Below are positions 1,189-62,407 of a DNA stretch of 64,000 nucleotides, piece after piece. Within the stretch, counting starts at the first letter, position 1. Each line of letters starts with the position of its first letter. The translations under genes and the position numbers were made by a program. The notes beneath the pieces were generated by a model. That model worked only from the letters and a program-made list of their open reading frames with translations, was not told where the DNA came from and ran no database searches. Source of the stretch: a virus; the IMG/VR virus record IMGVR_UViG_3300045988_051354, positions 35,058 to 99,057 of that record. The stretch is one strand, 5' to 3'.

Positions 1189-1297
1189 ATAGTTCGCTAC
1201 ACTATATGCGTTCTCTTATGAACTGCTGTATGTCACCATACAGGTCAGACTATATCACAATCCTATTAGGATTCTCCCCATTTCCACTGTCAATAGC

Positions 1298-1873
1298 TTA
1301 CAGTGTACTCTCTTTCGAGATAGTCGTTGAACTTTCATTACAGAACTCAAATGTATATCCATGATACAACCTATTAGCATTGATAGCTTTATGTAACCCT
1401 TCCACACAAGATGGCTTACCTATAAGGCGTACTGCTTCACTCATAGATTTATATATAGTATCATTCTCTATACATCTGACTGCCTTTGGAGCAGTCTTCC
1501 CCTTCATAGACTTACCAAGTACATCTACAGAGTGTCTTTCATTCTCTGACTGTGTGCACCATTCTAGGTTCTCTACACAGTTATTAGAACGATTGCCATC
1601 TATATGATTAACGTAAGGTTTGTTGTCAGGATTTGGTATGTACGTCTCAGCTACAAGCCTATGACACATATATCTTTTCTTAACACCTTCTTTCATTAAC
1701 ACAATCCTACTGTAACCATCTTGCATAACCTCTACTTTAAGTGATTTGCCAGGATAATTACGAGTTCCAGATTGCTTATACTTGATAATTCTATCTTTAC
1801 TTCTAAAGTTACCTAAAGTACTTACTTCAAAGTACCCTTCATAGTTAGGGATTTCTTTCCAAATTTCTTCCAT
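1298..1873 (-). CDS. HNH homing endonuclease (NUMOD4-like N-terminus) inside the nrdD intervening sequence
   Basis: EIWKEIPNYEGYFEVSTLGNFRS is a NUMOD4-like motif. HIDGNRSNNCVENLEWCTQSEN is an HNH motif. The gene sits between two nrdD coding blocks. Confidence 0.8.
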   Translation of the reverse strand: MEEIWKEIPNYEGYFEVSTLGNFRSKDRIIKYKQSGTRNYPGKSLKVEVMQDGYSRIVLMKEGVKKRYMCHRLVAETYIPNPDNKPYVNHIDGNRSNNCVENLEWCTQSENERHSVDVLGKSMKGKTAPKAVRCIENDTIYKSMSEAVRLIGKPSCVEGLHKAINANRLYHGYTFEFCNESSTTISKESTL

Positions 1874-7595: not shown

Positions 7596-8604
7596 ACAAT
7601 TCGTAGTATGCTACCATACGTAACAACTTAGTAAACTCTAAGAATCCTTCTTTCATATGGCCATTAGTAACTGGGTATACTCCAGACCTGAAATCAGGAA
7701 CTGTAGATACTACCAGCATATTAGCCTTTAAAGAAGGTTTGACCTTATATGTGTTCTCAATATACAGTTTAAGCATCCACATATACATAGCCATTTGTCT
7801 AGCATAATGATACTTATCAAAACTCTCGCCAAACTTAGTAAGATAATGCCCACTTGTCTTTAAGTCATTGAGTGTTAACTCATCGCTATCAGGACAGTAT
7901 GTGAAATTATCAAGTTTAGCTTTAAGTTTTAATACTTTATTCTTGCCACCATGTTCTACTAACACAGACATTAATAAGGCTGCTTCATTAGCTATAACAG
8001 GTTCTGCAAATAAACCTTCTGGTTTTAGTAATGACTGTATTTGCTTATTGCATTCAACTGATGTGAGACATTCTCGTAGCTTGTCTCTAGACTTGGGATC
8101 TAAATAAATAGGAACCTTATCGGCAACATATTTACTTCCCCATTCATAGGCTGTACGCTGAGCATAGTAGTCTTCGCATTTAATACGTAGAGCTTCCATC
8201 TTATCAGCATCCATTTTACCCTTATAATAGCTAATTTTATTTGATGCTGCTATAATTTCGTCAGCAGTAACAACATGAGTAGCTACAAATGTAGGATATA
8301 ATTCATCCGCCATGAATCCAGCTTTAGCTGTAGGTCTATTAACTGTTTCTACAAGAATAAATGATTCTGGTTGCAGTATTAATTCATGCACTGCTGAACC
8401 AAAATACAGTGAGTCAGAATACCTAGAGTCCGCTTCTAAACCAGCTTTATACAAAGCAGGACTTCCACCCTGCTCTGGATTTATTAGCTTCAATCTAGAG
8501 TTACTGATGTAATCAGAATAAGCATCCCCGAAGTATTCTTCATCACTTATGTCTAAATATTCTATGGTTTCAATTAGTGGTGTTATTTTAATTTCCTCAA
8601 GCAT
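7567..8604 (-). CDS. PD-(D/E)xK-family nuclease-like protein (recombination-exonuclease-like)
   Basis: 345 aa. GSAVHELIL ... ANMLVVSTV...K resembles the RecB/Cas4/YqaJ core. Assigned by motif only. Confidence 0.4.
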   Translation of the reverse strand: MLEEIKITPLIETIEYLDISDEEYFGDAYSDYISNSRLKLINPEQGGSPALYKAGLEADSRYSDSLYFGSAVHELILQPESFILVETVNRPTAKAGFMADELYPTFVATHVVTADEIIAASNKISYYKGKMDADKMEALRIKCEDYYAQRTAYEWGSKYVADKVPIYLDPKSRDKLRECLTSVECNKQIQSLLKPEGLFAEPVIANEAALLMSVLVEHGGKNKVLKLKAKLDNFTYCPDSDELTLNDLKTSGHYLTKFGESFDKYHYARQMAMYMWMLKLYIENTYKVKPSLKANMLVVSTVPDFRSGVYPVTNGHMKEGFLEFTKLLRMVAYYELYGYDADGIL

Positions 8605-34814: not shown

Positions 34815-35080
34815 TACTTGTTAGGTTTATTAATCTTATTTACTTCCTTAATAATTGCCTCGCAATTCTCTCTGGTTGTAGTTAAACAACCTAATTGAAT
34901 GATTGAACCATCTTGAGTGACGGTAAGATTCTTATCATCAATTGTGGTTCTACATTCACTTCCCCTAATAATACTTTTAATCAATGGGTAGGGTAATGCA
35001 GTATTCTTACAGAATATTACATTCTTGCCTTCCACATAAATGACATCGTAGCCGTCAATGCTACCTACTACCTTCCTCAT
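34814..35080 (-). CDS. hypothetical protein
   Basis: 88 aa. Confidence 0.4.
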   Translation of the reverse strand: MRKVVGSIDGYDVIYVEGKNVIFCKNTALPYPLIKSIIRGSECRTTIDDKNLTVTQDGSIIQLGCLTTTRENCEAIIKEVNKINKPNK

Positions 35081-37861: not shown

Positions 37862-37903
37862 CAGAAGACTTTGATATAAAACTATACTGCTGTAGTCTTC
37901 TTA
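37862..37903 (-). promoter_or_regulatory. conserved inverted-repeat element (AGAAGAC...GCTGTAGTCTTCT) between tRNA-Asp and tRNA-Thr
   Basis: Fourth copy of the element also seen at 45525, 48238 and 48723. Confidence 0.45.
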
Positions 37904-40494: not shown

Positions 40495-40558
40495 AATTAC
40501 AGAAGACCTTGCTGTATCATTATTAATGCTGTTCGTCTTCTTAAGCTGTAAAAGATTG

Positions 40559-45524: not shown

Positions 45525-45576
45525 ACAGAAGACATTGTAATCATATGTAACATGACACCTGCTGTATGTCTTCTTA
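45525..45576 (-). promoter_or_regulatory. conserved inverted-repeat element immediately upstream of the tRNA-Arg(UCU) 5' half
   Basis: acagaagac-[34 nt]-gctgtatgtcttctta. Confidence 0.45.
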
Positions 45577-46739: not shown

Positions 46740-47132
46740 TTACAATGAAACTTTATATTTGTCCCATTTATCCGTAAGAGTTAGAGTACTTTTAACTGTA
46801 ATCTCACTTGAAGGAATCTCGTACATATCGCCATTGACTACTACAATAAATAATATATCACATGTAGAATTATCAAAGTGTCTAATCTTTGATTGTCCAG
46901 AGGAGCCTCCACAATTCTTTAATAGAACTTCATAGTTGCCACTCTTTGATAGGTATTGAGTAGTTTTAACAGAAACTCTCTTCAGCCCATCTCTATCTAT
47001 TGCTATATCATATTTTTGAGTATCATTTAAAGGAATCAGGACAGGAATACAATTAGTTGTATAATAAGCTATAGCTCTACCCAGCCCTAAATTGCCTTGA
47101 TGTGATTTGTAGTCGCTTTCCCAAGCGTTCAT
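46740..47132 (-). CDS. small PD-(D/E)xK-like nuclease (third paralogue) immediately upstream of tRNA-Ser(UGA)
   Basis: LGLGRAIAYYTTNCIPVLIPL...YDIAIDRDGLKRVSVK is the same pattern as ORFs 9454 and 40022. Confidence 0.5.
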   Translation of the reverse strand: MNAWESDYKSHQGNLGLGRAIAYYTTNCIPVLIPLNDTQKYDIAIDRDGLKRVSVKTTQYLSKSGNYEVLLKNCGGSSGQSKIRHFDNSTCDILFIVVVNGDMYEIPSSEITVKSTLTLTDKWDKYKVSL

Positions 47133-47142
47133 TTACATAACA

Positions 47143-47200
47143 TTAAAAATTTCTAACTGTTTATCTAACCGTTGCATTAAGCCAACTCTGCCACCCTTCC
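47143..47200 (-). tRNA. tRNA 5'-fragment-like element (Ser-like acceptor + 3-bp D-stem, long D-loop + anticodon-arm-like hairpin)
   Basis: GGAAGGG-TG-GCA-GAGTTGGCTTAA-TGC-A-ACGGT-TAGATAA-ACAGT resembles a tRNA-Ser 5' portion. The acceptor is complementary to TCCTTCC of the orphan 3' half at 46593. Confidence 0.3.
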
Positions 47201-47324
47201 ATTAATAAGAGAGCATCTATCTTTCGATTACATACTCAATGACACTCTCCGAATTACTCCGGTCCTCGACAGTAGACCTTTACTGTTTAGCTAAAGCTGT
47301 CGACACTTTAGGTTATCAGTTTCG

Positions 47325-47399
47325 CACGCCCTGCACGACTCGAACATGCAACACACCCAGTTTTGGAGACAGGGGCTCTACCGATTGAGCTAAGGACGC
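47325..47399 (-). tRNA. tRNA-Trp(CCA)
   Basis: GCGTCCT-TA-GCTC-AATCGGTA-GAGC-C-CCTGT-CTCCAAA-ACTGG-[7-nt variable]-GCATG-TTCGAGT-CGTGC-AGGGCGT-G. Confidence 0.65.
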
Positions 47400-47661
47400 A
47401 TTTTAGTTACCAATCCTGAATGATTGTAAGGAACATTACTATAAAACCCGCTGTACCTACAGCAACTCTGCCATCTTCATTTAGTGGAGAATACACTGCT
47501 ATTAGAATTAATACAAATCCTAATAATAGTTGTAATATAAACTTAACATTTCTCATAATCACGCATCTCCAGAATTAGCAATCCACATGATGTATATAAT
47601 CATAATCACACCTACGACAAATTCTGTTAACATAATCAAATACATTTAAAATTAAACATTG

Positions 47662-47733
47662 CGGCGAGTGCAGGATTCGAACCTGCGACCAATTGGTTAA
47701 CGGCCAACTGCTCTACCACTGAGCTAACTCGCC
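47662..47733 (-). tRNA. tRNA-Asn(GUU)
   Basis: GGCGAGTTAGCTCAGTGGTAGAGCAGTTGGCCGTTAACCAATTGGTCGCAGGTTCGAATCCTGCACTCGCCG. Confidence 0.8.
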
Positions 47734-47742
47734 ATTTAAATA

Positions 47743-47940
47743 CTAAACACCATCTAGCATTATTAAGAAACCTATAATGGCTATCATAGAACCAATTATG
47801 ATTGGAACTCCTATAATATCTCCTAAGTTTACTAGTATTGGCAACAATAGAATCATGCATCCAATTAGAAACATGATAAGTCCTTTAATAAATCTGTGTG
47901 TCATAAAATCTATATATTTCCTACTGACAGGCGGCAGCAT
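47743..47940 (-). CDS. hypothetical small membrane protein
   Basis: 65 aa, two TM helices. The overlapping tracked ORFs are probably spurious. Confidence 0.35.
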   Translation of the reverse strand: MLPPVSRKYIDFMTHRFIKGLIMFLIGCMILLLPILVNLGDIIGVPIIIGSMIAIIGFLIMLDGV

Positions 47941-48160
47941 GATTATCCATGCGGAATTATCATGCCTGTGGGAGTCATTACATAAGTCTTAGAGACTTGA
48001 ATGAAATACCACTTAACTGCTTTCTTAATTAACTTAAATAGTTTCATAATAACTCAGTTTTAGTCAGTAAATTAATAATCTAAAAGGAAACCACTCTATC
48101 TTCACAGACCGAGTGGTCGAATACAATTTGCACTTCAAGTTGCTTAATTAAAGCATTCCT

Positions 48161-48232
48161 AGTGACTCCGCAGGGACTTGAACCCTGTTCTATAGATTAA
48201 AAGTCTATAGCATATCCATACATGCTCCGGAG
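48161..48232 (-). tRNA. tRNA-Lys(UUU)
   Basis: GACTCCG-GA-GCAT..ATGC-T-ATAGA-CTTTTAA-TCTAT-AGAA-CAGGG-TTCAAGT-CCCTG-CGGAGTC-A. Confidence 0.8.
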
Positions 48233-48237
48233 TCATC

Positions 48238-48307
48238 CTACAGAAGACAGAATTAAATCACACGAATAAATTGGCGGTTGCCAAGTCATGAAGTGCTGAC
48301 GTCTTCT
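48238..48307 (-). promoter_or_regulatory. conserved inverted-repeat element immediately upstream of tRNA-Lys
   Basis: acagaagac-[52 nt]-gctgacgtcttctta. Confidence 0.45.
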
Positions 48308-48325
48308 TATATTTCACTAAATCGA

Positions 48326-48399
48326 AGAGTGGGCGCTCGGATTCGAACCGAGGAATACAGATTTTGCAGACCTGCCTATTAAGCCACTCTAGCACGCCC
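48326..48399 (-). tRNA. tRNA-Cys(GCA)
   Basis: Acceptor GTGGGCG/CGCCCAC. Anticodon stem CAGGT/ATCTG with loop CTGCAAA. T-arm CTCGG-TTCGAAT-CCGAG. Confidence 0.7.
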
Positions 48400-48499
48400 A
48401 CATGTCAATGGACTAATGTGAGGCGAAAGTGAAACGGTTTAATCATTAAGGTCTTAATGATTGGATCTAGTGAAACTAAATAAACATACAAATAAATCG

Positions 48500-48573
48500 T
48501 CTGGGTAGCCGGGTACGATCCGACACTCTCTAGCTCCCAAAGCTAGCGGATTAACCTATTCTCCTATACCCAG
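48500..48573 (-). tRNA. tRNA-Pro(UGG) with atypical T-loop ATCGTAC
   Basis: Acceptor CTGGGTA/TACCCAG. Anticodon stem CTAGC/GCTAG with loop TTTGGGA. T-stem GTCGG/CCGGC. Confidence 0.55.
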
Positions 48574-48578
48574 AGTGC

Positions 48579-48622
48579 GGAAGTCTAAATATGCTTGACA
48601 TGGGTTATGCTGTAAGACTTCC
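48579..48622 (-). promoter_or_regulatory. covarying variant of the inverted-repeat element upstream of tRNA-Pro
   Basis: ggaagtct-[28 nt]-gctgtaagacttcc. The arms have changed in a complementary way compared with agaagac/gtcttct. Confidence 0.4.
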
Positions 48623-48643
48623 TATTAATTCGAAATCAAGACG

Positions 48644-48718
48644 TGGGCAAGATAGGACTTGAACCTATGACCCCTACTTTATCAGAGTAGTGCTCTAGAC
48701 CTACTGAGCTACTTGCCC
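48644..48718 (-). tRNA. tRNA-Ile(GAU)
   Basis: GGGCAAGTAGCTCAGTAGGTCTAGAGCACTACTCTGATAAAGTAGGGGTCATAGGTTCAAGTCCTATCTTGCCCA. Confidence 0.8.
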
Positions 48719-48722
48719 ATCC

Positions 48723-48788
48723 ACAGAAGACGCTACCAATACTAATCATATAAGAGGCGTGTGCTGTACGTCTTCTTAAATAAAATAA
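48723..48788 (-). promoter_or_regulatory. conserved inverted-repeat element immediately upstream of tRNA-Ile
   Basis: acagaagac-[48 nt]-gctgtacgtcttctta. Confidence 0.45.
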
Positions 48789-48807
48789 TCATTTATGGAT
48801 TATATGG

Positions 48808-48822
48808 TTGCGGAGATGGGAG
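48808..48822. repeat. 15-nt direct repeat ttgcggagatgggag (copy of the tRNA(CAU) 49535 3' end) flanking the GIY-YIG gene; second copy at 49534..49548
   Basis: Exact 15-mer at both ends of the 48823..49473 cassette. The distal copy lies inside a 9-bp palindrome, AGATGGGAG...CTCCCATCT. Confidence 0.6.
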
Positions 48823-49473
48823 CTATTGTGCATACTCCCATCTATATCCGTATGCTGTCTTAGTCTTGTGCTTAGCTGCATTAGAGATATGGCTTCTAAC
48901 ACCTCCGTTATATGTCTTAGCATAACCATTATCAACACACCAATGTGCTGCGTCAGCCACGCTATTAAACACTTGCACAAGTATATCTTCGTTGTACTGT
49001 TCTATCTTTACTGGAGGTTTACAGGAGCCACAATGTGACTCGCTATTACTGTGGGATCTCTTGATATCCTTCACTACTTTGGACACTGTATCTGGATGAC
49101 ATCCTACTATTTTAGCAGTCTCTTTCATCGAATGTCTAGCAGCGTAGAGCTCACGAATTTCATCATAGTTCCAAATAATAGAACCATCTCCACCGGTAGT
49201 GGCATTATAACCATTACCATAGGTTTTAAATTCATTTATCCAGTAAGTTTCTCTTCCGCTAGATTCCTTTGACGAGCACTCTTCTAGCATTTCTATGCTA
49301 AATGAATCAATTCCATATTTATTCATGGCTCTATACAAAGGTCTATCTTTGCATCTCTCCTTCTTATAATCTCTACAGTGTTCTTTCCATCTCTTACTAA
49401 CGGACGAAGTAGTTTTACCTATATACTTCTTTCCATTTACATGGTTAGTTATGCAGTAAATATAAGACATCAA
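48823..49473 (-). CDS. GIY-YIG homing endonuclease (I-TevI/Seg-like)
   Basis: YIYCITNHVNGKKYIGKT (GIY and YIG), conserved R/E/N, and a C-terminal DNA-binding region. Flanked by a 15-nt direct repeat of a tRNA 3' end. Confidence 0.8.
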   Translation of the reverse strand: MMSYIYCITNHVNGKKYIGKTTSSVSKRWKEHCRDYKKERCKDRPLYRAMNKYGIDSFSIEMLEECSSKESSGRETYWINEFKTYGNGYNATTGGDGSIIWNYDEIRELYAARHSMKETAKIVGCHPDTVSKVVKDIKRSHSNSESHCGSCKPPVKIEQYNEDILVQVFNSVADAAHWCVDNGYAKTYNGGVRSHISNAAKHKTKTAYGYRWEYAQ

Positions 49474-49534
49474 GCTTTAGTCGAATTAGCGTTACCCGAA
49501 TCTCACCACGTGGAGGTTTCGACTATGAGATTCT

Positions 49535-49612
49535 TGCGGAGATGGGAGTCGAACCCAATATAACTAGCTTATGAGACTAGTATGATTTATATATCCGTTT
49601 CATTCCTCCGCA
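49535..49612 (-). tRNA. tRNA(CAU) (third CAU tRNA; extended D-arm)
   Basis: Acceptor TGCGGAG/CTCCGCA. Anticodon stem CTAGT/GCTAG with loop CTCATAA. T-arm TTGGG-TTCGACT-CCCAT. The D-loop is unusually long, at about 13 nt. Confidence 0.5.
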
Positions 49613-49615
49613 AAG

Positions 49616-49687
49616 TGCTCCATACAGGATTCAAACCTGTGACACGTAGGTTTAGGGTCTACTGTTCTATCGCTGAACTAATGGAGC
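49616..49687 (-). tRNA. candidate suppressor tRNA, anticodon CUA (reads UAG), with C33 and an A31-C39 mismatch
   Basis: GCTCCAT-TA-GTTC-AGCGATA-GAAC-A-GTAGA-CCCTAAA-CCTAC-GTGTC-ACAGG-TTTGAAT-CCTGT-ATGGAGC-A. The acceptor, D-arm and T-arm are perfect. The anticodon triplet CUA sits at 34-36 of a 7-nt loop. Confidence 0.5.
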
Positions 49688-49788
49688 GTGTGGCAATGCT
49701 TTTAAGGTGCACCGCCAATTCATCCTACTACTTACTTCTTACCCCCGTAAGACCAGTTGCAACATGCTAACTGCTATGGAGCCTTGTT

Positions 49789-50094
49789 TCAGTAATTTCC
49801 TACTAATTTAAGTTTCTTGAACATACGACCATCATCTTGTAATGCGATTGCTGTTAATTGGTTATTAAGGTCTGGTTCACGGAACATAGAGTAATCCTTA
49901 TTAGTAAGGTCTAATCTAACTCTCCATTTATCCAAGTCAGCATATAAGTAGATTAAGTAGTTATTGTTCCAATTCTGATTAGGGTGTTCCAATAACCACT
50001 GTGCTACTGCATGACCACCTTGTACACAACCATAAACTACATCAAGCTTCTGGTCTATCAGCACATACAGTCTCTTCATCAGAATATGCATCAA
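49789..50094 (-). CDS. hypothetical protein
   Basis: 101 aa. Confidence 0.4.
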   Translation of the reverse strand: MMHILMKRLYVLIDQKLDVVYGCVQGGHAVAQWLLEHPNQNWNNNYLIYLYADLDKWRVRLDLTNKDYSMFREPDLNNQLTAIALQDDGRMFKKLKLVGNY

Positions 50095-50389
50095 TTAGTG
50101 AATCAACTCTACTCACAAAGTATTTCCATGTTTCCTTTGAGTAATCTCCACCGGAGCAACCGTACCAGCCGTTGAATTTTAATTTCTTCCAAGAATCTAA
50201 TACTTGCTTGTAATAAGCTTCTTGCGCATCCCCAACCAGTTTATGTTTTAGAATGTAATAAGCTACATACATTGCATGTAATAAACCTCTGTTACGATAT
50301 ACTTCTGATTGATGATTAATTCTTTTAGCGACCTTCTGTGCTTTTACTAATTCGCTAATTTCTCTTTTAAAATCGTTAATTGTTGCCAT
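50042..50389 (-). CDS. hypothetical protein
   Basis: 115 aa. Confidence 0.45.
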   Translation of the reverse strand: MATINDFKREISELVKAQKVAKRINHQSEVYRNRGLLHAMYVAYYILKHKLVGDAQEAYYKQVLDSWKKLKFNGWYGCSGGDYSKETWKYFVSRVDSLIDAYSDEETVCADRPEA

Positions 50390-50478
50390 AATAATTAGTT
50401 GTTAATAAGTTAATAAAATTGTAATTTCTAAATAACAGACTAACTGTTATGGTGGTTTGTAAGAAATCTACCGCATAA

Positions 50479-50763
50479 TCATTTCCTTTTAAATTGTTTG
50501 CACATGTTAATAAACTCATCTTCCGATTCGCATATAATCGGATTTATTTCCTTAATAAAATCCTCCTGATAAGCTTCTTTGGACAAATCATCTATCCCAT
50601 CAGGGTAAACACCATGCACGTCATAAGCCATATTGGATTCCCAACAACAGAGCCAATCAGCTTCTTTAAACGATGAACATATACATACACTTATTCCAGA
50701 TTGCTCTAACCTTTGTCTAAGTTCTGGAGTATTACTTTTAATAATACAGCATTTACTCATCAC
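50479..50763 (-). CDS. hypothetical Cys-rich protein
   Basis: 94 aa. Confidence 0.4.
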   Translation of the reverse strand: MMSKCCIIKSNTPELRQRLEQSGISVCICSSFKEADWLCCWESNMAYDVHGVYPDGIDDLSKEAYQEDFIKEINPIICESEDEFINMCKQFKRK

Positions 50764-51137
50764 TCACTTTCACTGACGAATGGAGTCCAACTAAGACTAA
50801 GTGACTCTACTGTGTTATCGTCACTAATGGCAGTAGCTCTAGCAGTAAAACCTCCATGACCGACATTATATGCAAATACATCAGAAGTGTCATCTAAATG
50901 TTTATAAAATTCCGGATCAAGTAATGTGTCAATAACCCTCTCTGCTGTCTCTCTCAACAATTTAGCAGTCAGGAATTTACCATTCCATGATACTGAAGCT
51001 GCTATAGGCGAGGAGGCCAACTTATGGAAATCACAAGGCTGATTGACATCTATGTATAGATTATATATTTCCAATATCCTCTCGAAATCCATACCGTCTA
51101 AACATTCATTTTTAATCTTTTCACTTACACTGTTCAT
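50760..51137 (-). CDS. hypothetical protein
   Basis: 125 aa. Confidence 0.45.
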   Translation of the reverse strand: MNSVSEKIKNECLDGMDFERILEIYNLYIDVNQPCDFHKLASSPIAASVSWNGKFLTAKLLRETAERVIDTLLDPEFYKHLDDTSDVFAYNVGHGGFTARATAISDDNTVESLSLSWTPFVSESE

Positions 51138-51158
51138 AATACTTCAAATTTAAAACGA

Positions 51159-51230
51159 GAGCGGGATAACAGAATCGAACTGTCATCTTCAGCTTGGAAG
51201 GCTGTTATAATAACCATTATACGAATCCCG
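51159..51230 (-). tRNA. tRNA-Gly(UCC)
   Basis: Acceptor GCGGGAT/ATCCCGC. Anticodon stem CAGC/GCTG with loop CTTCCAA. T-arm GACAG-TTCGATT-CTGTT. Confidence 0.7.
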
Positions 51231-51319
51231 CAGTTTACTTCTACTATTCTCACGAACCATAGAAGGGTTTGCTGAGCGAATGCTCAACAGATGTTGTATT
51301 TAATTATCGCAGTGTGGGG

Positions 51320-51403
51320 TGGGCCCGGGAGGACTCGAACCTCCAGTCCAATTAAGGAGTAGATTTACAGTCTACGCGGCTACCAATTACCGGTTACGTG
51401 CCC
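51320..51403 (-). tRNA. tRNA-Tyr(GUA), class II
   Basis: Anticodon stem GTAGA/TCTAC with loop CTGTAAA. Long variable arm. T-arm GGAGG-TTCGAGT-CCTCC. Acceptor GGGCACG/CGGGCCC has one A-G mismatch. Confidence 0.6.
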
Positions 51404-51651
51404 AAATCACACAATCCATATTAACTGATGAATTGTGAGTGCAAAGATAAGTAATCCTTCTCACATATAAAAGTTAATATGTATTAAATACAACATGGGG
51501 AAATTTAATTGGATATAGACTTACTATCTTCACAGACTGTAAGCCTTTATGACCATTTCCAATAGTTGCTGTTTTAAGTAGTAATGGCAATGACACAGAT
51601 GCAACTATCGGAAATTCTTTATGAGTAATTTAAAACTACAGTAATAATAGT

Positions 51652-51719
51652 CAGCTAGGTGGGATTCGAACCCACACCACTTACAAATTATGTAAGTCTT
51701 CTAACTTAAATTACTAGCC
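51652..51719 (-). tRNA. degenerate tRNA-like element (no D-arm; odd anticodon hairpin CTTAC-ATAATTT-GTAAG)
   Basis: Acceptor GGCTAG(T)/CTAGCTG is imperfect. T-arm GTGGG-TTCGAAT-CCCAC is perfect. Probably a pseudogene or a non-canonical tRNA. Confidence 0.3.
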
Positions 51720-51828
51720 TTACCGCTCACAGGCATCATTCAAATAAATCCCATCTAATAGATTAGATATGTAATTAGACTGTCTTTGATTTGTAATGCA
51801 CTTCTAATTACATAAGGAATTTAATCTT

Positions 51829-53547
51829 CTAGCCTTGTTGAGTGGACACAGTGCGCTTATTATAAATTGGCTTCTCAGACTTTGCAGGCTTACTCTGCAC
51901 GCTTGCATTCTTTCTCGGTGTGTCCTTCTCTAACACCATCATATTCAAGAGTTCTTGATTCATCATGTAATCGAACAACTCTTTAGGCGTACTAGGATTC
52001 TGGAATCTCTTCTCTCCGGTTATAAATCCAGCAGTGGACTGACTTAATCCGTTAACAAAGAAACAGTTAGAAACATTGCGAATCAATTCAACTTTAGGCT
52101 TAGTCTGTTTAGAGGCTAAATGCCAAATAATTAATTTAAACTGTTTAACAAACTCTTTGCTAAATCCAGCTTTTAAGAGTTTAGATTTAAATTCAATGAA
52201 TTGTTCACTGGTGTTTCTTAAATGTCCCAATGCTCCGCTAATTACCAAACAGCCATTTGGAAATTCACCTTCCCGAATTCCTCCAGATTTAATAGATATA
52301 AGCATATCTGCAATCATAGACAGAGTTGGACTAGTTACTAAGGCTTCCTCAGTATCTGAAATCCACTTACTAGTAGGAGTTGTACCTTCCCACTTACGTA
52401 AATCACATCTATTGTTGGCAAATACACCATACATGCCAGAGAACGCTACAGGCATTAATTCGGAATGATACATAGCATAAGCCTTACCAACACTATAAGC
52501 AGAAGTTTCAGTAGCTTCTATCTCAGAATAAGCAGAATTACTAATGTCTCTAATTACTAATAGTGGTGATACTTTCTTTAGCTTAGCATTCTTCACGAAT
52601 GTATTAAAACTAACATCTATAGAAGAACCCATGAATTCTGGTACGAACTCTGCAATTTTATCAAGCCCAAATGGCTTAAATAAATTATGCACAAATCCGT
52701 CATTACAGGGCTTTCTACGAGTCTTCAGCCATCTCTGATACTTCTCTGCAAGACCTTGTTGTTTGAGGAATTTAGAGCCTACTAGCAGTGCTAGAGCCTT
52801 TCCTGGAACTGTATCAAAGTCAATGTCGAGTAATTTCTTATGGCTTATTAATTGCTGCCATTTCATAACTGTACCGCTGTTCTTCATCTTTCTATACTTA
52901 CGATAAGATGAATAGTCTCCTTCCTCTTTCGGTTTACCATAAAGGCCTTCAGCTAGATATTTAGCAACTATGTTACGGGCTTTCGCCTCGTCTGTCTTAC
53001 ATATAGTATTAGCTCGAACTCTAGGAAGATACTTCTTTACTAAGTCACATGTTTGCCCTTCTACTAAACCAGCATAAATAGTCTTTCTAAAGAAATCCCA
53101 ATCTAGTCTATGCTTGTATCCATGTAATTGAGCATCCATTACTAACATATTAATAAAGTCCTTCCAGCATCCTGCTGCCGCAAAGTAAGGCATATTGGCA
53201 TGGAATGTAGATTTATGATATGTTGCCAACCACATCATTCTTAATAAACCTTCATTCTTTAGACCACCTCCTCGCTGTGTGTCTAAGTAAATAACTCCAT
53301 TAGGAGTAACTACTCTACATTTACGTGTAATAAGTCTTACATAGGCAGTAAATTTGACACACAGCTTTGGATTGGCCTTCCACAGTTCATACATATCTTG
53401 ACTAACGTCTTCATAAGAACGTGGTTCAAGATAGTGCGCAAGGTTTACGAATTGGTCCACAAATACTTTAGTAGGATTTGTATACCTTCGTCCCCCACCT
53501 TGAGAGGGCTTAGAGCAAGCCTTTTTAGGCCTTTCATTCATTTCCAT
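51829..53547 (-). CDS. hypothetical large protein (572 aa)
   Basis: Long ORF. No family recognised by eye. Confidence 0.6.
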   Translation of the reverse strand: MEMNERPKKACSKPSQGGGRRYTNPTKVFVDQFVNLAHYLEPRSYEDVSQDMYELWKANPKLCVKFTAYVRLITRKCRVVTPNGVIYLDTQRGGGLKNEGLLRMMWLATYHKSTFHANMPYFAAAGCWKDFINMLVMDAQLHGYKHRLDWDFFRKTIYAGLVEGQTCDLVKKYLPRVRANTICKTDEAKARNIVAKYLAEGLYGKPKEEGDYSSYRKYRKMKNSGTVMKWQQLISHKKLLDIDFDTVPGKALALLVGSKFLKQQGLAEKYQRWLKTRRKPCNDGFVHNLFKPFGLDKIAEFVPEFMGSSIDVSFNTFVKNAKLKKVSPLLVIRDISNSAYSEIEATETSAYSVGKAYAMYHSELMPVAFSGMYGVFANNRCDLRKWEGTTPTSKWISDTEEALVTSPTLSMIADMLISIKSGGIREGEFPNGCLVISGALGHLRNTSEQFIEFKSKLLKAGFSKEFVKQFKLIIWHLASKQTKPKVELIRNVSNCFFVNGLSQSTAGFITGEKRFQNPSTPKELFDYMMNQELLNMMVLEKDTPRKNASVQSKPAKSEKPIYNKRTVSTQQG

Positions 53548-53908
53548 CTTGTAAAATTAAATTAGCAGGTTAATCTGAGAGTTCTTTATTCTAATTGATA
53601 AAATGGGACACATAGACATTGAGCCAGCTTAATACAACTCGCTACTTACACACTACATGCCCCATATCAAATGAGGAAAGAGGTTCACTTGATGACCTAT
53701 CTACGTGCTGATTATAACGTAGACCGTGCAGATTCTCTCTCACACAATACTATGATGGACTCAAACCATCTCCACCCCTAGGTGAACTTTCCGTTATTCG
53801 AATAGTACAGGTTTCAACTCTTTATAACGCCTTTAAGTCAAAGTATACTCCGGAATATACTCTTAGTTCATCAGACCAAGTTTGCGCTTAGAATTATCTA
53901 AGATTAAG

Positions 53909-55431: not shown

Positions 55432-55470
55432 TGGACCATCGCGGACTCGAACCGCGGTCTTCACAACTCT
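55432..55470 (-). tRNA. orphan tRNA 3' fragment (T-arm CGCGG-TTCGAGT-CCGCG + acceptor 3' ATGGTCC-A)
   Basis: No complementary 5' acceptor lies within 100 nt. The nearest candidate is GGGCCAT at 56039, beyond about 600 nt of ORF-free sequence. Confidence 0.35.
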
Positions 55471-56166
55471 AAATAATAAGATTACGTGTGTCTCTATTTT
55501 ATTACATCAGCTGTTGAGTTCAGCATGTAGACAGTTTTATTAGTCTTATCCTGGAACCAGGTAATTAGGCTGTAATAGCCAAACCAGTACGCCAAAAGCT
55601 AATTTACAAACTACCAAACTTAAAGGTTCAGAAGCTGACGCTTCCAAACCTGGACTGACCGAAGTCGTCCCTCCACCACTCCATTTACGTTGGAGAACGT
55701 TTCTATTTGTAACCCATAGATAGGCAGTGGAGATTTCAGCTCTACTAACCTTTGGCTTTCAAGTTAATGCATCTAAGCTTCACTGTAACCTATAGGTACT
55801 ATGATTCTTCCCCGAAGGTCTCGTTATAACACTTAGATACAAACCTCTTCTGTTTCTAGGTCTCCCCATTAACCCGACTTAATCAATATGATATCGATAA
55901 GCCACAGCTTAAGCTGCCATTCTTACTTCAGTGTTGCCACTTGAAATTTGTGTATCATTTTATAAGAGTTGGTACGAACTCTACACGTCTTACTACCCAG
56001 TCATCATGAATCAATTCCATGTATGGCCCATAGTAGCATGATTATACTCTCATGCCAGGAGTGGGAAACAACCCAAAGCTTTCAGTATCCTCCTGTGCCA
56101 CTGGCGTACCCATTTCAGACTTAAAAGCTTATCAATGAATGAAAAAATGAATAGCACTGCAGAATG

Positions 56167-60912: not shown

Positions 60913-60987
60913 GTGAACCAGAGTAGATTCGAACTACTAACCTTTCTCTAGATGAGAATGTTCTTCCGGAAATTGAACTACTGGTTC
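60913..60987 (-). tRNA. tRNA-like element with non-canonical anticodon arm
   Basis: GAACCAG-TA-GTTC-[11-nt loop]-GAAC-A-TTCTC-ATCTA-GAGAA-AGGTT-AGTAG-TTCGAAT-CTACT-CTGGTTC-A. The acceptor, D-arm and T-arm are perfect. The anticodon arm is 5 bp with a 5-nt loop, or 4 bp with a 7-nt loop CATCTAG. Confidence 0.4.
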
Positions 60988-62407
60988 TAGCCCAAGCCTA
61001 TTTCACAACAAACTTGGGTTAAAGTAAATAACAACTTTATATATTATGATACACTTATTTGCATTTTACACCTAAAACTTAGAATCTTGCATGCAACTGC
61101 AATCTATTACATTTGTCTGACAAGGACAAACAACTAAGAAACTGGTGCCCTCAATGTCTTGGGATGTTATTGAGTTTTTTAAAAGTCCTTATAATCCTCT
61201 CTTTTAAGATAACTTAGAACTTTAGGTCTAGACTTGTACTTCGTCTATCCAAGTTTGTACTGTGCGAATACTTCGGATTATAGAGTGTATAGCACAATCC
61301 TCTAAAGTTTAGAGTATACACAATCTTTTGGGACTTTGTTATACTATTCTTGCCCAGGGAGTAGCGTAAACCGTCATATTAAACCGACATGTATCAATCC
61401 ACGGCCCCTTGATACTGGATCTACATTATTAGTAACGAATATAGTGCCTGTCTTTCCAGGCTGTCACCAAACTTATAAATCGGAATTGGTTTCCTGTACG
61501 GTTTATCCTTAAACTTTTAAGTGCGTTACTAGTAAACCGCCTAAAAGATACAGCACTACTGGTTTAAACTACCCTACCAGCAAGTAAAGCTCGTCTTTCC
61601 GAGCCGCCATGCTATCCCTTGTGTCACAGTACTCGCAACATACCATAACAGAACGTTCCTTTAGCCGATTACCCACACACCCCTACGTACAATGGTGGAA
61701 CGCAGCTTTCGCTACGATTAACAACTCTAGCTTTCTTCCCCTTCTTGGTTCTCCGTCATTACGGTTTGTATTATTGAAAGCGTGGAGGAATGGTCCTCAC
61801 ATTACTACTTAAAGCAATGTGGTTTTACCATTATTTACTCACAAATACATTTTCTTTGTGAGTCTATCATAGCTCTTGTACGCATTACTCGGCAGAGGAG
61901 CCTTACCGAAACCTACAATGTAGGACGCTGTTTAAAACTTAAAAATTAATATAATTAAAACAATCATGTGGACTCCTGCTTTAACGCATGAAGCAGGAAC
62001 GTTTAACTTTTGGCACTACATACATTATGTCCGTTTTGTGATGTAGGGATTCTAAGTATTTGCAACTACTCAGAAGAGCTAAACCAGGTTGCCTATCCTT
62101 TACAGCGATAGGCGTTCTGTTTATTTATAACTGCATCCAACAATTACCATGCCAAGCAAATTCTGCATCACCGATTCTCATTCTCCACTCAGAACCATCA
62201 TCAGTATAGAATTCATATTGTCTTCTGAAAGCTTCTTCACTTGAAATTGTTGTTGTATGTCCGTCTGACCAAATTATCTTATCCATAATTGTATATGTAA
62301 CTAACCTTTACGTTACGAGGTTTTAAATTGTTAATCAGACTCCTGCATATAGCAGAAGTTTCGTCCAGTCTCATCAGTGATTATTTTATAGACTCCTGGT
62401 TGTCTTA

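Follow-up and report, generated by a model that had tools for sequence, protein, structure and literature searches.

The window analyzed here, a 64,000-nucleotide (nt) stretch of a phage genome (IMG/VR record IMGVR_UViG_3300045988_051354, positions 35,058 to 99,057), carries a GIY-YIG endonuclease gene flanked by a direct repeat of the 3′ end of the adjacent tRNA(CAU) gene. Within it, the 726 bp at 49533-48808 probably constitute a mobile cassette, in which a theta-type ribozyme, a minimal relative of the hepatitis delta virus (HDV) ribozyme, and a free-standing GIY-YIG gene sit together at the 3′ end of tRNA(CAU). Comparison of alleles indicates that ribozyme and endonuclease gene move together and that a duplication of tRNA nt 58-73 comes with the insertion.

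The repeat pair and the alleles of the tRNA(CAU) locus

All genes at this locus lie on the minus strand, on which tRNA(CAU), ribozyme, GIY-YIG gene, a copy of tRNA nt 59-73 and the native trailer follow one another (Table 1). The 15-mer TTGCGGAGATGGGAG has two exact copies in the window, one inside the tRNA and one behind the endonuclease gene; no third copy was found in the window with two mismatches allowed, the mean chance expectation is 0.03 matches, and none of 100 shuffles reached two. On the coding (minus) strand, its sequence is CTCCCATCTCCGCAA. A preceding interpretation made from the letters alone (the sequence-only reading) had located both copies, recognized one as the T-stem and acceptor end of tRNA(CAU) and placed the other immediately after the GIY-YIG stop codon, all of which we could verify. 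The proximal copy comprises T-loop nt 59-60, the T-stem 3′ strand CCCAU, the acceptor 3′ strand CUCCGCA and the discriminator A. In a relative carrying the same allele (L007), the stop codon is TAA instead of TAG, so that the repeat there measures 16 nt (nt 58-73). Neither ARAGORN nor Rfam detected a tRNA at the distal copy, a site that is the end of the endonuclease open reading frame (ORF); the distal copy is thus not part of another functional tRNA, a possibility that the sequence-only reading had raised.

A scan of IMG/VR with the last 23 nt of tRNA(CAU) provided 15 loci for comparison with the window. One of them, L010, represents an empty site: here ...CTCCCATCTCCGCAA is joined directly to ccatataatccataaatg..., with a single 15-mer and without the sequence corresponding to window 49533-48808. 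Its flanks are 96-99% identical to those of the window, the first 100 nt of the trailer are identical, and the downstream alignment extends over 1.37 kb at 96.5%. Neither the ribozyme nor the GIY-YIG gene is present at the tRNA(CAU) site of L010. This comparison defines the repeat as the border of a 726-bp insertion or deletion that holds both the ribozyme and the endonuclease gene, and it provides the cassette-free relative by which the sequence-only reading had proposed to check its view of the repeat as an insertion footprint.

The other loci fill in a range of alleles. L007 matches the window, L014 carries the cassette plus a 750-nt HNH ORF in the tRNA anticodon loop, and L013 has an internally deleted endonuclease gene with the repeat retained. 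In L008 and L015 the ribozyme stands alone. Neither ribozyme nor endonuclease gene is found in L010, of a close lineage, or in L001, L003, L004, L009 and L012, which belong to a more distant one. L006 contains a diverged lineage of the cassette (69% protein and 72% DNA identity) with the distal copy TTTCCATCTCCGCAA and another trailer, so that in the two cassette lineages the distal copy abuts lineage-specific trailers. At tRNA(CAU), the alleles can be arranged as a decay series from intact (window, L007, L014) via internal deletion (L013) and ribozyme-only (L008, L015) to empty (L010), and internal deletions of the endonuclease gene recur at other loci (L129, L088). From these sequences, we read the ribozyme-only alleles as residues of endonuclease decay, leading from the window type via L013/L129 to L008.

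The 750-nt HNH insert lies at L014:3351-4099 and L010:1009-1757, in the tRNA(CAU) anticodon loop (corresponding to window 49570-49572), and encodes an HNH_2 endonuclease of 213 amino acids. It assorts independently of the GIY-YIG cassette: neither, either or both occur. A group I intron was considered for this insert and rejected, as there was no Rfam match and no candidate 3′ splice site ends in G; judged by its sequence, it is probably a separate, free-standing disruptive insertion. A group I intron was likewise rejected for the cassette itself, since 47000-52000 contains no Intron_gpI match at E <= 1 and the tRNA is contiguous upstream.

The tRNA(CAU) combines the acceptor UGCGGAG/CUCCGCA, the D-stem AUGA/UCAU, a 14-nt D-loop, the anticodon loop CUCAUAA, the T-loop UUCGACU and the discriminator A73 at 49534. 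It was not called by ARAGORN, and the Rfam tRNA model scored it at 20.8 bits, under the gathering score of 29, owing to the 14-nt D-loop. RNAfold recovered the acceptor and anticodon stems in a cloverleaf-compatible fold (z = -3.0). The gene is base-for-base identical in 11 related IMG/VR contigs (contigs with the identical tRNA: L001, L003-L005, L007-L009, L012, L013, L015), the flanks of which differ by 7-30%. In view of its fold and strict conservation, we still regard it as a real tRNA.

Table 1. Positions of the tRNA(CAU) locus features in the window.
Feature	Coordinates	Strand	Basis and remarks
Amber-suppressor tRNA(CUA)	49616..49687	-	ARAGORN; Rfam tRNA 56.8 bits; immediately upstream of tRNA(CAU)
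tRNA(CAU), 79 nt	49534..49612	-	Cloverleaf read by hand; without encoded CCA
Proximal repeat copy	49534..49548	-	nt 59-73 of tRNA(CAU)
Theta-type (minimal HDV-like) self-cleaving ribozyme, predicted	49478..49533	-	Rfam RF02682, covariance model R1, covariation
GIY-YIG homing endonuclease gene, 215 amino acids	48823..49470	-	ATG at 49470, stop TAG 48825-48823; Pfam PF01541
Hairpin over the distal copy	48811..48850	-	RNAfold; distal copy nt 59-70 paired with the last endonuclease codons (CGGA-UAUA-GAUGGGAG)
Distal repeat copy	48808..48822	-	Copy of tRNA nt 59-73; directly 3′ of the endonuclease stop
Native tRNA(CAU) trailer	48719..48807	-	CCA start at 48807-48805; inter-tRNA spacer hairpin 48726-48775; matches L010
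tRNA-Ile(GAU), next array gene	48643..48718	-	ARAGORN and Rfam

Ribozyme and endonuclease gene of the putative cassette

The 56-62 nt between tRNA and ORF, taken for a spacer in the sequence-only reading, are by Rfam match, covariance modeling and covariation a theta-type HDV-like ribozyme and part of the inserted unit. Folded by hand, this predicted ribozyme has the helices P1 (GAAUCUC/GAGAUUC), P2 (UAGUCGAA/UUCGACUA) and P3 (ACC/GGU), the loop L3 UCCACGU, a P1.1 of CC/GG assigned by eye, no P4, and J4/2 as C-UAA, with 6-7 nt between P1.1 and J4/2. Cleavage is predicted 5′ of G49533 (G1), directly after the tRNA discriminator A49534 (A73). The Rfam model RF02682 (HDV-F-prausnitzii) matched 49533-49470 with 37 bits (E = 2.5e-4 for a 5-kb search), short of the 44 bits of its gathering score, and no Rfam family named for theta ribozymes was among the matches of the locus search.

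A covariance model built here (R1), containing only P2 and P3 and thus not enforcing P1, was searched against the window and 98 loci found by endonuclease protein homology. It returned a single match in the window, at 49479-49533 (75.7 bits, E = 4e-16). In a first set of 20 variants, partly circular given that many sequences had been pre-filtered for P1/P2 pairing, 95.5% of the P1/P2/P3 cells were paired as compared to 33-48% in slid controls, and 14 of 18 pairs showed compensatory (double) changes; C45, the catalytic C and first position of J4/2, and A48 were invariant in the 20 sequences. On account of the pre-filtering, the P1 test was repeated on R1 matches from the protein-homology loci. 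P1 was then paired in 81.8% of cells versus 27-63% in slid controls, with 60 double-change cells as compared to 22.5 in shuffles; none of 500 shuffles reached the observed value.

The endonuclease ORF starts with an ATG 8 nt beyond ribozyme P2. Residues 1-89 of its product match PF01541 with 48.2 bits (cut-off 22.6), and the columns invariant over nine aligned homologues (GIY/YIG tyrosines, Arg, Glu) are all kept in the window protein; Y5, R27, E74 and N89 are the invariant positions of this alignment (A1). The C-terminal half gives weak matches of the helix-turn-helix (HTH)/NUMOD kind, to HTH_38, HTH_28 and HTH_23 (20-22 bits, below cut-offs); NUMOD1 reaches 23.5 bits (cut-off 22.8) in the L207 homologue and both HTH_28 and HTH_7 reach their cut-offs in that of L112. 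IMG/VR holds more than 537 relatives of the endonuclease, a family located mostly just downstream of tRNAs, and, among the 80 best loci, about 23 have a theta ribozyme between tRNA and endonuclease start codon. The best matches of the protein search were unannotated human-faecal phage contigs with at most 55% identity; a megablast of 47500-51500 against INPHARED, covering cultured relatives, returned only a 61-nt tRNA match. A promoter scan restricted to the sigma-70 type, as distinct from the Bacteroidota type, found no such site between ribozyme and ATG.

Given two amber-suppressor tRNAs(CUA) in the window, at 49616-49687 (-) and 60913-60987 (-), we considered read-through of the TAG stop, which would render the distal copy coding (adding LPSPQPYNP). 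This was rejected, as L007 ends on TAA and the extended reading is unconserved. The window gene itself has no internal TAG. In-frame TAG codons do occur at aligned positions in the endonuclease homologues of L020, L023, L024, L025, L030 and L163, a pattern that indicates TAG recoding in these phages.

The same layout at other tRNA and tmRNA genes

An RNA gene (tRNA or transfer-messenger RNA, tmRNA), a ribozyme, a GIY-YIG gene with its stop codon and a copy of nt 58-73 follow one another in the same layout at about ten other genes. The copy spans T-loop nt 58 to discriminator nt 73 in all positive contexts, and in most of them TAA, the stop codon, overlaps or adjoins A58-A59. Relative to the protein, the junction comes 1-7 codons past the conserved GYxW motif. 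End-copies matching at 16/16 positions follow three different tRNA-Met genes (L163/L173; L164; and L129, in which the endonuclease gene is a remnant) and a tRNA-Pro (L207), whereas 14/16 positions match at tRNA-Leu(UAA) (L174/L181/L112/L088), 13/16 at a probable tRNA-Arg (L233), and 13/15 in L006. Two tmRNA genes (L212/L053 and L231), assigned by Rfam with 56-64 bits (gathering score 47), complete the group. The remaining contexts with ribozyme and endonuclease gene score 8-11/16, equal to shuffled controls. As a universal trait of the family the repeat was rejected: L020, L023, L030, L160, L190, L192, L198, L215 and L241 have ribozyme and gene without it.

Two of these contexts again come in occupied and empty versions. 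The tRNA-Met AATCCTACCTCCGCAA is occupied in L163/L173 and empty in L112:2668, L175, L177 and L180, and the tmRNA ending in ...CCCGTTAGGTCCA is occupied in L053/L212 and empty in L112:5053. The empty alleles contain neither ribozyme nor endonuclease gene; in them the RNA 3′ end is present once, and the same trailer comes directly after it. With three independent empty/occupied contexts, ribozyme, endonuclease gene and 16 nt behave as one unit.

Individual loci extend this picture. On phage tmRNA 3′ ends, the cassette with the 16-nt repeat lies at L212:912-1429 and L231:1131-1425; in the window, a weak tmRNA-like match without a cassette at 55439-56012 (-) (26.9 bits, gathering score 47) has a 3′ end, ...ggttcgagtccgcgatggtcca, resembling the L212/L231 tmRNA ends. 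L129:8191-8480 comprises a tRNA-Met, a ribozyme, a 140-nt endonuclease remnant joining the N-terminal MGYIY to the C-terminal ...KTAYKFIWKM, and a 16-nt copy without mismatch, which in sequence terms is a decayed cassette that kept ribozyme and repeat. In L162, a tRNA-Cys is followed by 19 nt, a GIY-YIG gene and then the tRNA-Met 16-mer; by comparison with L163 and L172, it appears to be a recombinant of two endonuclease paralogues flanking tRNA-Met, with tRNA-Met and ribozyme deleted. Theta ribozymes also stand directly 5′ of other nucleases, namely HNH_3 (6e-11; L072:2343-2883, L095) and PD-(D/E)XK (PDDEXK_5, 8e-23; L109, where the ribozyme is at 7604 of the reverse strand), and no tRNA-end repeat was found after the genes of these three loci. 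Native trailers mostly begin with C(C/T)A in a comparison of the distal junctions of the window, L207, L163, L174, L231 and L129: CCA in window/L010 and L207, CTA in five others. C(C/T)A is absent after the cassette-bearing tRNA copy, where the ribozyme begins with G.

The distal copy of the window takes part in a hairpin. The sequence-only reading had described here a 9-bp palindrome that mimics a T-arm. The palindrome itself is real: the inverted repeat AGATGGGAG/CTCCCATCT occupies 48843-48835 and 48822-48814, and RNAfold assigns the hairpin -18.4 kcal/mol (z = -3.97). The mimicry did not hold, as the 12-nt loop, TATGCACAATAG, is unlike a T-loop and the structure is lineage-specific. In the L018/L006 lineage (69-72% identical), the hairpin is kept with one G-C to A-U compensatory pair and one G-C to G-U change (z = -2.47); L007 and L013 contain an A.C mismatch, and the 5′ arm coincides with the conserved R-W-E codons of the endonuclease. 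Around the distal copies of six other folded contexts, none gave a significant hairpin (none in L163, L164, L207, L212 and L231; a weak one in L174), and a general T-arm mimic was rejected on these grounds. Any role of the hairpin would be local to one lineage, if there is one at all.

The locus belongs to a dense array, ARAGORN calling 25 tRNAs in the 64 kb; tRNA(CUA) at 49616..49687 is part of the same array as tRNA(CAU) and probably of the same transcript. A tRNA-like gene at 51651-51720 (-) scored 42.7 bits with the Rfam tRNA model, received no ARAGORN call and has the odd anticodon loop AUAAUUU. A family of six hairpins (37864-37900, 40502-40540, 45528-45573, 48243-48306, 48580-48621 and 48726-48775; 0.35 expected) has stems of the form GAAG(A/T)C...G(A/T)CTTC and shares, on the minus strand, the motif ACAGCA immediately inside the 5′ stem. 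At least four lie in inter-tRNA spacers and the family has no Rfam match; it may signal processing of the tRNA array. Elsewhere in the window, a RAGATH-34 RNA (53804-53901 (-), 86.9 bits) and a RAGATH-1 hammerhead ribozyme (62333-62406 (-), 82.6 bits) scored above their gathering scores, and a weak group I intron match was obtained at 1226-1532 (-) (29.2 bits, gathering score 50, E = 0.0017). Small ribozymes or ribozyme-associated RNAs of several kinds are thus present in this phage.

Proposed mechanism, alternatives and known systems

Taken as a whole, a mobile cassette combined with a silencing and homing mechanism appears to us the probable explanation of the locus. The sigma-70 scan having found no promoter-like site in the cassette, the latter is probably co-transcribed with the tRNA array. 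The ribozyme would then cut the transcript right after A73 and release a tRNA with a correct 3′ end, carrying a 2′,3′-cyclic phosphate to be followed by CCA addition, along with an endonuclease mRNA that starts with a 5′-OH and the folded ribozyme. Self-cleavage would in this manner render the insertion phenotypically silent and costless to the phage, a role that introns and inteins play for other homing genes. The endonuclease, in turn, probably recognizes, as SegB does, the conserved T-arm in cassette-free genomes and breaks the tRNA gene there. That the distal copy always has the same left edge (nt 57/58) most likely reflects the position of this break, the right-hand end then starting at A58. 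Along one route, the left end would be repaired by copying nt 58-73, ribozyme and gene from a donor, and the ends then joined, potentially at the AA microhomology shared by the stop codon and A58-A59. Along another, a 16-nt staggered cut would be filled in after insertion, with the same product. Any particular route to the duplication is put forward tentatively at best, and since the two repeat copies are identical in recent insertions, the incoming copy is not distinguishable. Once present, the distal copy could serve as a short built-in downstream homology arm, whatever follows the tRNA, an idea that fits its abutting lineage-specific trailers in the window and L006.

Several observations weigh against this explanation. 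GIY-YIG enzymes are known to leave 2-nt overhangs, not 16-nt ones, and to our knowledge a transposon-like target duplication is without enzymatic precedent given such overhangs. Occupied alleles carry a proximal tRNA that does not differ from the naive gene; were the target to lie wholly inside the tRNA, as that of SegB does, the enzyme could cut the occupied allele too, and protection from self-cleavage would require a target reaching beyond nt 73. About 60% of the contexts with ribozyme and endonuclease gene have no repeat, and this repeat-less majority implies that the duplication is not required for a cassette to exist. The ribozyme match to RF02682 stays under the gathering score (37 versus 44 bits). 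Moreover, the ribozyme-only alleles L008 and L015, and the many theta ribozymes of a pattern scan without an endonuclease gene nearby, leave room for a ribozyme older than the endonuclease at some loci. Finally, a precise deletion between the repeats could also yield 'empty' alleles, which leaves the direction of change unproven.

Among the alternatives, the ribozyme could be a native tRNA 3′-processing device beside which the endonuclease gene landed, the two not forming one mobile unit. This would account for the tRNA and ribozyme kept without an endonuclease gene in L008 and L015, for the absence of a downstream nuclease ORF from most theta-like ribozymes of the pattern scan, and for the HNH_3 and PD-(D/E)XK genes behind theta ribozymes, as if the site were a preferred landing place. 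We nevertheless consider it unlikely. Both parts are missing from the empty allele in three independent contexts, and, since the trailers differ, the window allele corresponds to the L010 type with a single contiguous insert rather than to the L008 type with a gene added; in-place decay of the endonuclease, as in L129 and L013, would itself leave ribozyme-only alleles. An RNA function might instead be what keeps the distal copy, with the hairpin stabilizing or processing the endonuclease mRNA 3′ end or blocking mispairing with the tRNA 5′ strand. The stable fold (z = -3.97), kept in L006/L018 with one compensatory change, is in line with such a function, as is the distribution of differences among distal copies, which cluster at nt 58-62 and leave the 3′ 11-12 nt unchanged in five contexts. 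Yet the hairpin is insignificant in L163, L164, L207, L212 and L231 and weak in L174, its 5′ arm consists of the R-W-E codons, and L007 and L013 bear the A.C mismatch. As it would explain persistence in one lineage and not origin, we deem this reading improbable.

Two further scenarios concern the origin of the distal copy. It might be the remnant of a second, tandem tRNA(CAU) overwritten by the endonuclease gene, in keeping with L030 and L019, in which the endonuclease ORF reaches the next tRNA, and with the presence of ACGGATATA in two places, the tRNA D-loop and a position shortly upstream of the distal hairpin. However, ACGGATATA falls within the conserved Y-G-Y codons of the protein family, the empty alleles show a single tRNA followed directly by the trailer found after the distal copy, and the same start (nt 58) in about ten unrelated contexts is unlike random decay, making this origin very improbable. 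Alternatively, an integrase acting on an attachment (att) site from T-loop to tRNA 3′ end could have inserted the element, with the repeat as attL and attR, an arrangement suggested by the direct repeat of the tRNA 3′ end at both element borders and its fixed 16-nt length. Integrase att sites within tRNA genes reportedly take, as a rule, the form of an identity block from T-loop to tRNA 3′ end, according to work attributed to Williams in 2002, and the sequence-only reading had spoken of a 'classic footprint', a term that implies att recombination by an integrase. The 726-bp insert, however, has the GIY-YIG gene as its single sizeable coding-strand ORF and encodes no tyrosine or serine recombinase; its right end varies from 1 to 7 codons after GYxW, and no conserved element ends were seen. 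Without an integrase in the insert, the footprint is not of the classic att type, and we lend the scenario hardly any credence. A transposon with target-site duplication would share the fixed 16-nt duplication, but there is no transposase, the left end is the variable P1, and the right end varies.

Returning to the cassette, its recurrence raises the broader idea that theta ribozymes belong, partly if not wholly, to unrecognized ribozyme-armed homing endonuclease cassettes as their 'silencing module'. Such cassettes would enter phage tRNA and tmRNA genes at the T-loop/3′ end, create a second copy of nt 58-73 and, through self-cleavage, give the RNA its proper 3′ end back. We see this generalization as evenly poised. 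If it is true, it adds a third solution, beside introns and inteins, for a selfish nuclease gene residing in an essential gene: entry into a structural-RNA gene without destroying it, by end duplication and cutting, with no splicing. Ribozyme-only tRNAs would then often be leftovers after endonuclease decay, and the spread of the ribozyme over tRNA isotypes would stem from homing, not from recoding control. This would give the ribozyme class, itself of recent discovery, an evolutionary rationale and could explain identical ribozymes beside many isotypes. The fixed nt 58-73 duplication amounts to a testable prediction of the cut position of a T-arm-recognizing GIY-YIG enzyme, and tRNA-ribozyme junctions may offer natural templates for producing precise tRNA 3′ ends in synthetic systems. 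None of the three components is picked up by annotation pipelines, the tRNA being uncalled, the ribozyme sub-threshold and the repeat unannotated.

Kienbeck et al. (2024, PMC10879173) described the theta ribozymes of gut Caudoviricetes, a minimal HDV-like type located beside tRNAs, and observed their cleavage at the tRNA 3′ end in vitro. In that set tRNA-Met(CAU) is one of the commonest partners, most associated tRNAs lack an encoded CCA, and 157 ribozymes were found, unexplained, beside tRNAs of more than one isotype (PMC10879173). The window ribozyme resembles them in its P1/P1.1/P2/P3 double pseudoknot without P4, the catalytic C opening J4/2, G1 after the tRNA 3′ end, the tRNA without encoded CCA, and a phage genome with suppressor tRNAs. 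That study ties theta ribozymes to tRNA maturation and to genetic-code switching (recoding), and the words endonuclease, homing, GIY, recombination and duplication are absent from it (PMC10879173). Here, by contrast, the ribozyme lies in a present/absent cassette with an endonuclease gene and a 16-nt duplication, and the 157 multi-isotype ribozymes fit mobility.

SegB of phage T4 is a GIY-YIG homing endonuclease encoded in a tRNA cluster that recognizes GGTTCRANTCC and cuts tRNA genes (PMC2330249). Its 27-bp site starts at the T-arm motif, inside tRNA genes, and ends near CCAR, with several cut points toward the 3′ end (PMC2330249). The window enzyme is likewise encoded inside a phage tRNA array, and the C(C/T)A start of the trailers recalls CCAR; its protein has the general GIY-YIG domain, with the SegE-type N-terminus matched weakly. 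Unlike here, neither a ribozyme nor a duplicated tRNA end is described for segB. The parts are thus known singly (theta ribozymes, 2024; tRNA-cluster GIY-YIG enzymes, SegB, 2008); we did not find their combination described. In the library searched, seven papers mention theta ribozymes, and no paper combining 'HDV-like ribozyme', 'homing endonuclease' and 'tRNA' emerged.

Homing genes borne by self-splicing group I introns of tRNA genes, and by inteins, share with the cassette the placement of a nuclease gene in a conserved gene together with an RNA or protein device that removes it from the product. Unlike introns, for which Rfam finds no evidence here, the cassette would work without splicing or exon ligation, preserving function via 3′ duplication and a cut. 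In Allomyces atp6, a mitochondrial endonuclease ORF is said to have arrived with a replacement 3′ end for the host gene, the displaced end being left downstream (work attributed to Paquin et al. in 1994). As at tRNA(CAU), an endonuclease gene there sits at a host 3′ end that is present twice, once functional and once displaced; atp6 differs in being a protein-coding host gene with an in-frame fusion and no ribozyme.

R2 and related non-LTR (long terminal repeat) retrotransposons reportedly carry an HDV-like ribozyme at their 5′ end, as attributed to Eickbush and Eickbush in 2010 and to Ruminski et al. in 2011, and the R2 ribozyme frees R2 RNA from the 28S rRNA co-transcript. Both R2 and the proposed cassette are selfish elements in a structural-RNA gene, co-transcribed with it and equipped with their own 5′ HDV-like ribozyme, so that the ribozyme forms the start of the mRNA. 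R2, as an RNA-mediated retroelement of eukaryotic rDNA, inactivates its rRNA unit, whereas the element proposed here would be a DNA-level phage homing cassette in which the cut also makes a functional host tRNA end. By analogy, the R2 ribozyme would be its closest functional counterpart.

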